64,000 bases of DNA, taken from Myxococcota bacterium. Its GTDB lineage: Bacteria > Myxococcota_A > UBA796 > CAJQPC01. Below the pieces are notes generated by a model. It was not told the origin of the DNA and made no database searches. It saw only the letters and a program-made list of their open reading frames with translations. Where the stretch lies: positions 16,416-80,415 of the forward strand of contig JAZAMN010000030.1 in NCBI GenBank assembly GCA_036229005.1, read 5' to 3'. The position numbers were made by a program, and so were the translations under genes. How positions within the stretch are numbered: position 1 is the first letter of the stretch; the number at the start of each line of letters is the position of its first letter. Positions 17,610 to 20,740 of the stretch are shown here, piece after piece.

Positions 17610-18068
17610 ATGTTCAAGAAGGGCTTTACCCTCGTCGAGCTGATGATCGTCGTCGCCATCATCGGCATCCTGGCCGCAATCGCCATCCCGAACTTCATCG
17701 AGATGCAGTACCGCGCCAAGCGCTCCGAGGTCCCCTCCAACGTGAAGGGCATCAAGACCGCCGAGCTCGGCTACGACGCCGCGTTCGACACCTTCGTGCA
17801 GGCGACCGCGCACCCCACCTCCACCGCCTCCAAGCAGCAGGTGGACTGGGCCGGCGGCAACGCTGACTTCCAGAAGCTGGGCTGGGCTCCCGACGGCAAG
17901 GTGCGCGGTGTGTACACCGTGACCACCACCGCCGCTGGTGGCGGCTCCGCGGGTGGTGACTTCACCGTCACCGGTACCTGCGACGTCGACGGTGACGGCG
18001 TGATCGCACAGTACACCGCCACCAAGTCGGTGAACGCCACCTTCAACAACAACAACGACACCTACTGA
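17610..18068 (+). CDS. pilA: Type IVa major pilin PilA
   Basis: Prepilin leader MFKKG followed by FTLVELMIVVAIIGILAAIAIPNF. 152 aa. Confidence 0.95.
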   Translation: MFKKGFTLVELMIVVAIIGILAAIAIPNFIEMQYRAKRSEVPSNVKGIKTAELGYDAAFDTFVQATAHPTSTASKQQVDWAGGNADFQKLGWAPDGKVRGVYTVTTTAAGGGSAGGDFTVTGTCDVDGDGVIAQYTATKSVNATFNNNNDTY

Positions 18069-18100
18069 GTCGTTGCGGTTGACCCCCTCGGGGGTGCAGA

Positions 18101-18126
18101 AAAGGGCAGGCCTTCGGGTCTGCCCT
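18101..18126 (+). terminator. Stem-loop downstream of pilA
   Basis: AAGGGCAG-gccttcgggt-CTGCCCTT. The inner pairs leave a TTCG loop. There is no T-tract. Confidence 0.5.
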
Positions 18127-18170
18127 TCCTGCTCTGGGGCCCGAGACCCCGCCTGCTGTAGGCTGCCCGG

Positions 18171-19835
18171 ATGAAGCGAGACCGGACCCTGTGGGCCTTC
18201 GGGGCCATCTGCCTGCTCCTGAGCGTCAGCTACGGCTCGCTGGCCTGGGCGGGCTTTGTGTTCGACGACTTCCCGCTGGTCGTCAACAACACGATGATCC
18301 GGGACCTGGGCAACCTGGGCCTCTTCTTCCGCACCGACCTCTGGGCCGGCGCCGACGTCGAGGTGGCCTCCGGCTACTACAGGCCCCTGGTGATCACCTC
18401 GCTGGCTGTGGACTACGCCCTCTTCGGCGATTGGGCCGGCGGATACCACCTGCAGTCCCTGTTCTGGCACCTCTGCGGCTGCGTGCTGCTCCTGGCGCTG
18501 CTGCGCCGCTGGGTCCACCCGCTGGCCGCTTTGGTCGGCGCCGCACTCTTCGCCCTCCACCCCCTGCAATCCGAGGCGGTGGCCTGGATCGCCGCCCGCA
18601 ACGACGTCATGGTCGCCGCGTTCGCCCTGGGGAGTCTGCTGGCCCTCGAAGGGGAGCGCCCCGGCCCCTGGCGCCTCGCGCTCGGTGGCACACTGGGCCT
18701 GTGCGCGCTGCTCAGCAAGGAGAGCGCGGTCCTGCTGCCGCTGATGGTCCTGGGCGCCGATCTGGCCTTCCACCGGCGCTTCTCCCACTGGAGCAAGTGG
18801 GTGGCCTTGGGGGGCGCCGCTGCGGTCTACCTGCTCTTGCGCAGTCAGGCGGAGCTCAGCCTGGAGGCCGGCCCCGACCGGGCGCTCATCCTGGCCGCCA
18901 TCCAGAGCGCCCCCCGGATCGCTGGGCACTACGGCCTGCGCGTGCTCAGCCCCTACCCGCTCAGCGTCGGCGCAACCTTGGAGTACCTGCGGCCTTGGGT
19001 CTCCATCTCCAGCATCGCCGTGCTCGGCGTCTCGGGGCTGCTGCTCTGGCGCGGCGGGCGCAAGGCCGCCTACGGCCTGGGCTGGATGCTGCTCTTCTTC
19101 GCCCCCGCCGTCCTGGCCATCTCCTTCCGGGCCCAGCTCGGCGAGCGCTACATGTACCTGCCGCTGGCCGGTCTGGGGGTGGCGCTGGCCGCCGTGCTCC
19201 CCCAGGACAGGCGCCTCTGGCTGGCGGTGGGCGCCCTGGTCCTCCTGCACTTGGCCATCGTCCCCATGCGCCTTCTGGACTGGCGGGACAACGAGGCGCT
19301 CTGGGGGGCCGCCGTTCGCAGCGACCCCAACGGCTACAGCTACGCCGGGCTGGCCCACGTCTACAACCACCAGGGGCGGGTGGACGAGGCCGCGCACTAC
19401 TTCCACGCCGCCCTGGAAGAGGAGCCTCCCTACACCGAGTTCTGCAACAACGCGGTCAGCCTGGGGCTCAACAACGGACGCCTGGACATCGCCTACCGGG
19501 GGGCCTTTCTGGTCGGTCAGAACTGCCCGGACAGCATCGAGAACCTGGGCCTGGTGGCCACTGCCCGGCTCATGGCTGGGGACATCGCCGGGGCCGACTC
19601 CGCGCTGGACCGCTGGGGGGGCAGCGAGCCCGACGAGCGCCTGGAGCTCGCCGCAGCGGCCAGGGCCTTGATGGAGGGGGAGGCGGCGCGCTACGACGCA
19701 CTGGTCGGGGCCAACCCCCAGGACCCCGCGTTCGCCGACAAGGCCCAGGAGCTGGCGTCCATGGCCGAGGACAACCGGGATCAGGACGCCTACCGCGCGC
19801 AGCTTCGGGGTGAGCCGACGCCGGGGGTGCCGTGA
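18171..19835 (+). CDS. Multi-TM GT-C-like glycosyltransferase (PMT/TMTC-like) with C-terminal TPR region
   Basis: About 10 hydrophobic helices. The first-loop motif GFVFDDFPLVVNN resembles the DD/DE motif of PMT/TMTC-type GT-C enzymes. The C-terminal part looks TPR-like. Confidence 0.65.
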   Translation: MKRDRTLWAFGAICLLLSVSYGSLAWAGFVFDDFPLVVNNTMIRDLGNLGLFFRTDLWAGADVEVASGYYRPLVITSLAVDYALFGDWAGGYHLQSLFWHLCGCVLLLALLRRWVHPLAALVGAALFALHPLQSEAVAWIAARNDVMVAAFALGSLLALEGERPGPWRLALGGTLGLCALLSKESAVLLPLMVLGADLAFHRRFSHWSKWVALGGAAAVYLLLRSQAELSLEAGPDRALILAAIQSAPRIAGHYGLRVLSPYPLSVGATLEYLRPWVSISSIAVLGVSGLLLWRGGRKAAYGLGWMLLFFAPAVLAISFRAQLGERYMYLPLAGLGVALAAVLPQDRRLWLAVGALVLLHLAIVPMRLLDWRDNEALWGAAVRSDPNGYSYAGLAHVYNHQGRVDEAAHYFHAALEEEPPYTEFCNNAVSLGLNNGRLDIAYRGAFLVGQNCPDSIENLGLVATARLMAGDIAGADSALDRWGGSEPDERLELAAAARALMEGEAARYDALVGANPQDPAFADKAQELASMAEDNRDQDAYRAQLRGEPTPGVP

Positions 19836-20740
19836 AGACCCAGGCGCTCGCGCTCGCGATCGCGGTGTCTGCGGCTAGCCTCGCGCACCTCGCCCAGCGC
19901 CGCATCGATCCGCTGCGACGACAGGCCCAGGACCGCAGCGACAGGGACGCGGTGGCCTCGGGGGAGCTCGTGCGGGTCGCCGCCTCGGGCTCGGAGCTGC
20001 TGGTCGCGGACGTCATGTGGGTGCGCGCGGTCCTGGCCTTCGGAGAGGGCTTCCAGGAGCAGGGCCTGAGCGCCCCCGGCTGGTCCACCTGGTTCGCGGG
20101 GACCCTCGACGCTGTCACCACCCTCGATCCCACCTGGGCCACCCCCTACATCTGGGGCGGCATGATGCTCGAGGTCGCCGAAGACCCCCGCGCCGCCGCC
20201 GGGATCTACCGCCGCGGCGCCGCCAACCTGCCCGACGACTACCGCTTCTGGTTCAACCTGGGCATGCTCGAGTACTTCCAGTTCGACGATCCCCAGGCGG
20301 CCGCCGGCTACATGAAGCGGGCCTCCGAGTGTCCGGGCGCACCCGGCTGGTTCGCCAACGCCGCGGTGGCCTACGGCTCCGAGCGGGAGACCCGGCAGGC
20401 CGCCCTGACCTACCTGCGGCAGGAGCTGGAGAGCACCGCCGACCCTGACCTGCGCTCCGACATCCAGGCCCGCATCGCCAAGCTGGAGCACGAGATCCTG
20501 GCCGCGGACATCAACCAGGTGCGCGCACAACTCGAGGCACAGCTCGGCCGCAGCCTGAGCTCGCCCCAGGAGCTCGTCGACCGCACCGGGACACCCCTCC
20601 CGCCGGACCCCTTGGAGGGGGAGTGGATCCTCGACGTGGACGGCGAGATCCGCTCCTCTGTGCACGCCGAACTCCTGCGCGATGCGGCGCTCAAGGGCGC
20701 GCGCGGCATCCTCACCAGCCCCCGGATCCAGGCCCGGTGA
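19832..20740 (+). CDS. Secreted helical-repeat protein, unknown function
   Basis: The GTG start overlaps the upstream stop by 4 nt. Signal-like [18 protein letters not shown] and TPR-like helices. Confidence 0.55.

Follow-up and report, generated by a model that had tools for sequence, protein, structure and literature searches.

A putative GT-C glycosyltransferase with a TPR tail encoded beside pilA in Myxococcota: a TfpW-like gene arrangement that recurs with pilin genes in other phyla

Pilin glycosylation has been documented mainly in a few proteobacterial pathogens. It alters the surface chemistry of the pilus, and in Pseudomonas it blocks pilus-specific phages. The pilin-glycosylating enzyme TfpO is encoded directly 3' of pilA. 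The same position is occupied by the gene for TfpW (AAM52060.1), the pilin D-arabinofuranosyl transferase of the P. aeruginosa group IV strains Pa5196 and PA7, which is a protein of 646 amino acids (aa) with 11 predicted transmembrane (TM) helices, a DDX motif in periplasmic loop 1 and a C-terminal periplasmic tetratricopeptide repeat (TPR) domain (Villela et al., bioRxiv 10.1101/2020.04.19.049825). The best structural template of TfpW is ArnT, its TPR domain best matches human OGT, and it adds D-arabinofuranose (D-Araf) mainly at Thr64 and Thr66 (bioRxiv 10.1101/2020.04.19.049825). The D-Araf donor pathway genes of PA7 are unlinked to pilA. Here, a 64-kb stretch of DNA (the window; contig JAZAMN010000030.1, positions 16,416 to 80,415) from a Myxococcota bacterium was analyzed, in which the type IVa pilin gene pilA is followed by a gene for a 554-aa membrane protein (18171-19835, + strand). 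The arrangement can be described as TfpW-like, since it shows the same anatomy and the same nearest structural neighbours when compared with the published architecture of TfpW.

The 554-aa protein is, with very high confidence in its predicted structure, a GT-C glycosyltransferase with a TPR tail. An AlphaFold model built from the alignment of homologues (predicted local distance difference test, pLDDT, 95.1; predicted template modelling score, pTM, 0.92) has approximately 11 membrane helices in residues 1-371, in agreement with hydropathy, and its top Foldseek matches in the PDB are ArnT (5F15, 5EZM), AglB, PglB, STT3, AftB, Pmt4, and ALG3, all at a probability of 1.00 with modest scores (E = 1e-3 to 1e-1; TM-score 0.33-0.43 over the full length). 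The C-terminal part of the model matches the TPR superhelices of OGT and APC. Sequence searches against PDB chains with the full protein and with the membrane domain alone returned TPR matches or nothing and were thus uninformative on the membrane domain, so that fold comparison was needed. Among 55 homologues (30-52% identity) the pair D32-D33, located directly past the first TM helix in the first periplasmic loop, is invariant, and 15 more positions bring the number of invariant ones to 17, including W58, R71, P72, D81, H100, H130, P131, E135, R143, D145, K183, E184, R224, and R326. A topology of 11 TM helices with the N-terminus in the cytoplasm is compatible with hydropathy and the positive-inside rule; it would expose the DD loop and the other charged invariant residues at the periplasmic face and put the TPR domain (~372-545) in the periplasm. 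An initial annotation, made from the sequence alone, had likewise called the protein GT-C-like with an acidic first-loop motif and a TPR-like C-terminal half, and both descriptions agree with the model, its solved GT-C neighbours, the invariant DD pair and the OGT match of the tail (Table 1). The strings that it had quoted, GFVFDDFPLVVNN in the 554-aa protein and TSTAS, VTTTAAGGGS and the tail NATFNNNNDTY in PilA, are all present, and the positions that it had given for the genes are correct.

The same annotation had compared the first-loop motif with that of PMT/TMTC-type enzymes and proposed a search with the corresponding profiles, and the outcome leaves that label only loosely appropriate. 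PMT_2 (PF13231) reached 21.4 bits (E = 3e-4) on the 554-aa protein, below the gathering threshold of 26.1 bits, and was matched by 25 of the 55 homologues (best E = 3.5e-9). DUF1736 (PF08409) had no match at E <= 1 in the protein and is carried by very distant relatives only; membership in TMTC was rejected on this ground. Similar to TMTC1-4 (GT105), PMT (GT39), and bacterial Pmt, the protein combines a GT-C fold with an acidic loop-1 motif, and Pmt4 is among its structural matches; unlike PMT, it has no MIR domain. TMTC is a protein-modifying GT-C with a C-terminal TPR domain, and the topology predicted here would put the tail of the 554-aa protein on the non-cytoplasmic side as in TMTC. TMTC and PMT enzymes use a polyprenyl- or dolichyl-phosphate sugar donor at the non-cytoplasmic face. 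ArnT (GT83), also a periplasmic-face GT-C, is the best structural neighbour (5F15, E = 1e-3; 5EZM, TM-score 0.41-0.43), but sequence identity is only 15-16%, and ArnT has no TPR domain and acts on lipid A with undecaprenyl-phosphate-L-Ara4N as donor. In contrast, TfpO/PilO and PglL belong to an unrelated O-antigen-ligase-like family that moves preassembled oligosaccharides; no Wzy_C or O-antigen-ligase domain was matched by Pfam or NCBIfam in the 554-aa protein, and a TfpO/PglL-type enzyme was therefore rejected. The wider family comprises 163,413 representative clusters at E <= 1e-3 (44,005 at E <= 1e-30), which are named in the source data as 'hypothetical', 'TPR repeat protein' or 'protein O-mannosyl-transferase' and are essentially uncharacterised.

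With TfpW the protein shares the location of its gene 3' of pilA, a predicted GT-C domain of about 11 TM helices, the Asp-Asp pair in the first periplasmic loop, a large C-terminal TPR domain predicted to be periplasmic, and the nearest solved structures, namely ArnT for the membrane domain and OGT for the TPR domain. The initial annotation had suggested a GT-C lineage different from that of TfpW. A different lineage is not clearly indicated, because TfpW, likewise encoded 3' of pilA, also combines a GT-C domain of 11 TM helices and a loop-1 DDX motif with a TPR domain at its C-terminus. In addition, the TfpW system has a terminator separating pilA from the accessory gene, and a likely one occupies the same place here, and the TfpW acceptors Thr64 and Thr66 fall in the loop where mature PilA has T65-S66-T67 (T65-S66-T67-A68-S69 were located in the alpha-beta loop region by pilin alignment); a Ser/Thr-rich strand of PilA reads VTTTAAG. 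The differences include the shorter length (554 against 646 aa), the downstream partner ORF3 (ORF, open reading frame), which is single-anchored and TPR-like versus the 3-TM TfpX/TfpY type, the lack of nearby D-Araf pathway genes in the annotated parts of the window, and the host, an uncultured high-GC Myxococcota lineage. PADLOC and NCBIfam had no specific model match for a TfpW-type enzyme, a scan of viral contigs for TfpW gave one marginal fragment, and literature searches yielded nothing specific on a mannosyltransferase/TPR gene downstream of pilA or on pilin glycosylation in Myxococcus.

The relationship between GT-C/TPR genes and pilins was investigated in a synteny sample for which one genome per species was scanned and the 80 best loci were retained. 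The order pilC-pilS-pilR-pilA-GTC-ORF3-HPPK/TAL-TetR-ETF (GTC, the GT-C gene; ETF, electron transfer flavoprotein) is present in 12 loci of Myxococcota metagenome-assembled genomes, with GT-C identities of 29-46%, and an exact-protein look-up found pilC-pilS-pilR-pilA-GTC-ORF3 in two further places (L089 and L090); at least 13 Myxococcota metagenome-assembled genomes share the synteny. Several variants were detected: a second, divergently oriented GT-C paralogue lies between pilR and pilA in L003 (7624-9204, - strand) and L004 (3804-5384, - strand), two pilins are followed by two GT-C genes in tandem in L005 (7151-11563), and the order is pilA-ORF3-GTC in L018 and L050. The second pilin copy of L005 is poor in Ser/Thr (9% versus 15-17%). 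In a low-GC uncultured bacterium (L075) the order is pilR-pilA-GTC/TPR-pilM (PilM_2, E = 2e-53), in L079 pilA is followed by two GT-Cs, and 1-2 GT-Cs accompany 1-4 pilin genes in three Acidobacteriota loci (L064, L076, and L081). When the membrane domains were placed in a neighbour-joining tree, the pilin-adjoining GT-C/TPR genes fell into at least six separate clades from three or more phyla. Of 26 pilin-like ORFs in 1.2 Mb of sequence from relatives' loci, 24 have a GT-C gene within 2.5 kb, a distance that takes in only 36% of the non-GT-C sequence; the binomial probability of about 3e-9, not corrected for relatedness, is an overstatement as relatives are not independent, and the direction is clear. 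Although the Myxococcota synteny block could be inherited gene order, the linkage of GT-C genes to pilA exceeds what shared descent gives. Thus, both GT-C homology and conservation of the pilA/GT-C adjacency, whose absence had been named in the initial annotation as grounds for abandoning its proposal, were found, the adjacency being conserved in Myxococcota and recurring independently in other phyla. In five Verrucomicrobiota loci (L065, L068, L070, L051, and L053), up to five GT-C/TPR paralogues stand in tandem within 20 kb, and pilin genes are absent. The taxonomic labels of L003, L004, L007, L013, and others ('uncultured Enterobacterales' or 'Klebsiella pneumoniae') look wrong for contigs of about 69% GC in which the pil synteny is of the Myxococcota type.

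On balance, a pilus-related role of the 554-aa protein, most likely TfpW-like O-glycosylation of PilA, appears somewhat probable, and confidence is held at this level because the proposal rests on gene linkage and analogy. In such a mechanism, the inner-membrane GT-C would O-glycosylate PilA before or during pilus assembly, as TfpW does in Pseudomonas, using a polyprenyl-phosphate-linked sugar at the periplasmic face. The active site would consist of Asp32-Asp33 and of invariant charged residues arranged in a ring where the helices end on the periplasmic side, the periplasmic TPR domain would recruit the acceptor protein, and the co-translated ORF3 product would be an accessory factor of the pilus cluster, perhaps holding or presenting the membrane-anchored pilin. 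Expression of the GT-C gene would probably occur via read-through of the hairpin 3' of pilA, giving far less enzyme than pilin.

Several observations weigh against PilA being the acceptor. The whole Myxococcota block is syntenic through TetR and ETF, so the linkage there may reflect descent, and many GT-C paralogues of 33-44% identity have no pilin neighbour. L013 keeps GTC-ORF3-HPPK-TetR-ETF with TamAB upstream in place of pilA and the pil genes (L013 3110-9938), and this TamA/TamB-like pair, which directly adjoins the GT-C gene at the place of pilA, marks a rearrangement that removed the pil genes there. The 44,005 representative clusters at E <= 1e-30 make the wider GT-C/TPR family so enormous that pilins cannot be its general substrate. 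The YX6PFX7P motif of TfpW (periplasmic loop 4) is only half matched by the conserved Y254-x6-P261-Y-P263 in a periplasmic loop of the 554-aa protein, the distal Pro being absent; the half-motif Y-x6-P-[FYW] recurs in the family, and the full motif occurs in none of 116 GT-C matches (113 ORFs of relatives). The Ser/Thr cluster in the alpha-beta loop of PilA is not conserved in the alignment of orthologous pilins. As the N-x-T sequons at the C-terminus also differ between orthologues, the idea of a conserved glycosylation site was rejected, and no site is predictable. Sugar-donor genes (DprE1/E2, GtrA-like, GT2 polyprenyl-phosphate sugar synthase, and DPPR synthase) were not seen in the annotated parts of the window, and no sugar-pathway genes occur among ten ORFs scanned with Pfam at 30-64 kb. 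Finally, a strong and conserved terminator hairpin stands between pilA and the GT-C gene, and the latter is translationally coupled to ORF3, as ORF3 is to a gene for an HPPK-transaldolase fusion. This GC-rich hairpin, with 11 bp and a UUCG loop, is likely a terminator or attenuator; RNA folding gave a comparably strong hairpin 3' of pilA, in many cases with a U-rich tail after it, in 12 of 15 related loci, the exceptions being L005, L011, and L050. The GT-C gene may hence be transcribed mostly apart from pilA, in a separate operon with ORF3 and the HPPK-transaldolase gene. A terminator-then-accessory-gene layout has been reported for pilin accessory genes of Pseudomonas and other genera, so the hairpin is counted as neutral and not as contrary.

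The main rival, which is considered unlikely, is that the enzyme is a broad-specificity periplasmic protein O-glycosyltransferase, analogous to PMT/TMTC, for which pilin is at most one acceptor and whose position in Myxococcota is mainly inherited. A huge and diverse family with many paralogues per genome, among them the Verrucomicrobiota arrays, would be expected of such an enzyme, and the close paralogues that have no pilin neighbour, the GTC-ORF3 pair of L013 without pilA, the extension of the synteny to housekeeping genes and the terminator after pilA all fit it, whereas the independent adjacency to pilins in at least six clades and three or more phyla (with one insertion between pilA and pilM), the strong pilin enrichment and the fact that the partner ORF3 is itself a pilus-cluster gene speak for a closer tie to the pilus. 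Still less probable is an ArnT-like transferase that has no relation to the pilus, acts on a non-protein acceptor (a cell-wall polymer, exopolysaccharide, lipopolysaccharide core, or lipid A) and uses its TPR domain for complex assembly. Such a function is suggested by the lipid A modifier ArnT being the best structural neighbour, by the frequency of glycolipid acceptors among GT-C enzymes and by the possible transcription of the gene apart from pilA, but the characterised GT-Cs with a C-terminal TPR domain (TMTC and TfpW) are protein-modifying, the linkage to pilins is recurrent, and no lipopolysaccharide or exopolysaccharide genes flank the gene in the annotated parts of the window. It is highly improbable that the protein lacks catalytic activity and serves pilus assembly or stability as a TPR scaffold or chaperone like PilF/PilW/Tgl or TfpY with a degenerate GT-C domain as anchor: TPR proteins are frequent among pilus assembly factors, the pilin accessory proteins TfpX/Y/Z are non-enzymatic and NCBIfam PilW was weakly matched (E = 6e-4), but that match is restricted to about 47 residues of one TPR, and retained catalysis is indicated by 17 invariant positions, among which the DD pair and the charged residues occupy the places that they have in active GT-Cs.

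ORF3 provides another connection between the GT-C gene and the pilus. The stop of the GT-C gene overlaps the GTG start of ORF3 by 4 nt (GTGA), and ORF3 was modelled (pLDDT 81) as a TPR-like superhelix together with a hydrophobic helix at the N-terminus, one long helix and a small beta hairpin, in line with the 4-nt coupling to a helical-repeat protein that had been noted initially; its structural matches are TPR proteins only. Relatives of ORF3 were detected with a hidden Markov model (HMM) beside the GT-C gene in every syntenic locus and in L013, L018, L050, L076, and L081, and a profile search gave at least 1113 family members with a length of about 309 aa, for the most part Acidobacteriota proteins. 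Two long Acidobacteriota contigs with no GT-C gene (L085 and L086) carry 2-4 pilins, an ABC ATPase, an ABC-2 permease and an ORF3-like gene (4-nt overlap), followed by pilC, pilB, and pilMNO. ORF3 is therefore a pilus-cluster gene in its own right, and the GT-C gene of the window is flanked on both sides by pilus-associated genes. A PAP2_3 membrane protein is encoded among the pilin genes in L086 and L076. Being single-anchored and TPR-like, ORF3 was rejected as an accessory protein of the TfpX/TfpY type, which is characterised by beta-sheet domains and three TM helices. In M. xanthus, the products of pilG-pilH-pilI, downstream of pilA, are reported to be required for the export of pilin (PMC3724824). 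The pilins, ABC ATPase, ABC-2 permease and ORF3-like gene of Acidobacteriota mirror the pilA-pilG-pilH-pilI layout of M. xanthus, whereas in the window no ABC transporter gene adjoins ORF3. NCBIfam and profile searches gave no named PilG match for ORF3, which may be a PilG homologue, a lead suggested by gene layout. A more far-reaching and rather doubtful possibility is that the pilin, the GT-C/TPR enzyme and the ORF3-family anchor constitute a previously undescribed cross-phylum module for pilin O-glycosylation, present in Myxococcota, Acidobacteriota and others, in which ORF3 would present the membrane-held pilin and might be a PilG counterpart working with the PilHI ABC transporter.

Upstream of pilA, sequence elements that fit control by PilR and sigma-54 were identified. 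Two identical copies of a 19-nt repeat, TGACGCTCAGCGTCACCTG, are likely candidate PilR binding sites, and a sigma-54-type site, TGGCAC-N5-TTGA, is likely the pilA promoter. Three sites of the sigma-54 type occur in the window versus 0.25 expected by chance; further TGGCAC-N5-TTGC sites are found on the - strand at 3145-3159 and 12331-12345. Within pilA, positions 17970-18000 encode TGTCDVDGDGV, in which a D-[VI]-D-[GA]-D motif is conserved and only one Cys occurs; this is closer to the calcium-binding loop known from GspG-type pseudopilins than to a D-region closed by a disulfide bond.

The window has a high GC content (65-74%), and its gene calls are identical on two public metagenome assemblies. 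The + strand carries, in order, pilB, two sulfatase-family genes, pilC-pilS-pilR-pilA, the GT-C gene after a gap of 102 nt, ORF3, the gene for the HPPK-transaldolase fusion, a TetR regulator gene and the genes for the beta and alpha subunits of ETF (Table 1). Codon statistics (G+C at third codon positions, GC3, of 0.92-0.94) favour pilA, the GT-C gene, ORF3 and the HPPK-transaldolase gene as real genes. The last of these is probably a housekeeping gene that shares an apparent operon with ORF3, which it overlaps by a second 4-nt GTGA; the fusion of HPPK (folate pathway) with transaldolase/fructose-6-phosphate aldolase is retained in L090 and split in L089, L005, and L011. The two adjoining genes of the sulfatase/alkaline-phosphatase superfamily between pilB and pilC are located at 6600-7850 (416 aa) and 7847-9292 (481 aa). 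Neisseria PptA, a pilin phospho-form transferase, belongs to this superfamily, and by analogy the pair might represent a second pilin-modifying activity or might equally be unrelated. The Pfam scan of the ten ORFs at 30-64 kb revealed TamA/TamB-like proteins, a sulfatase-like protein, HEAT repeats and a protease resembling Rce1; the TamA-like (Omp85/POTRA; 47527-49740) and TamB-like (49815-54287) genes form a pair 27 kb downstream.

Table 1. Features of the pil region in the window and of related Acidobacteriota clusters, with the evidence for each (TM, transmembrane)
Feature	Position	Strand	Evidence
pilB, type IV pilus extension ATPase	4814..6538	+	Pfam MshEN + T2SSE
pilC, platform protein	13308..14528	+	Pfam T2SSF_N + T2SSF
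pilS, sensor kinase	14533..16059	+	Pfam 6TM_PilS, HisKA, HATPase_c
pilR, sigma-54 activator	16052..17443	+	Pfam Response_reg, Sigma54_activat, HTH_8
Two identical 19-nt repeats TGACGCTCAGCGTCACCTG, each internally palindromic, 42 nt apart	17446-17464, 17488-17506	.	repeat search
Sigma-54-type promoter-like site TGGCAC-N5-TTGA, 52 nt upstream of pilA	17544..17558	+	pattern search
pilA, major type IVa pilin, 152 aa, 5-residue leader MFKKG, then FTLVELM	17610..18068	+	N_methyl E = 1.7e-8; typeIV_PilA_Myxo E = 4e-19
GC-rich 11-bp hairpin, UUCG loop, directly 3' of pilA	18102..18127	+	RNA fold
Predicted GT-C membrane domain, aa 1-371, ~11 TM helices; D32-D33 codons 18264-18269	18171..19283	+	conservation, model, Foldseek, hydropathy
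Predicted C-terminal periplasmic TPR-like domain, aa 372-554, ~12 helices	19284..19835	+	OGT TPR match E = 3.6e-9; sub-threshold Pfam TPR at 390-419; model helices
ORF3, 302 aa, TPR-like, N-terminal hydrophobic anchor or signal	19832..20740	+	model, HMM, GTGA overlap with GT-C gene
HPPK-transaldolase fusion, 416 aa	20737..21987	+	Pfam HPPK + TAL_FSA; GTGA overlap with ORF3
Acidobacteriota pilus clusters with ORF3 family	L085 5115-10930; L086 5126-10930		

If the gene is merely a neighbour of pilA, the result is an ordinary membrane glycosyltransferase annotation. What would be new, if the proposed function is correct, is the extension of TfpW-like pilin modification to Myxococcota and Acidobacteriota, together with a conserved partner family, ORF3. 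The pilin-adjoining members would then also offer a tractable enzyme-substrate pair for probing the large GT-C/TPR family. Should the more speculative cross-phylum module exist, it would provide the first acceptor substrate for this bacterial family, which has tens of thousands of uncharacterised members, and bacteria of soils and sediments would commonly bear glycosylated type IV pili. Similarly, if the Myxococcota and Acidobacteriota enzymes modify pilin, sugar-coated type IV pili would be common in the environment, with a bearing on social motility, predation, adhesion, and phage resistance.

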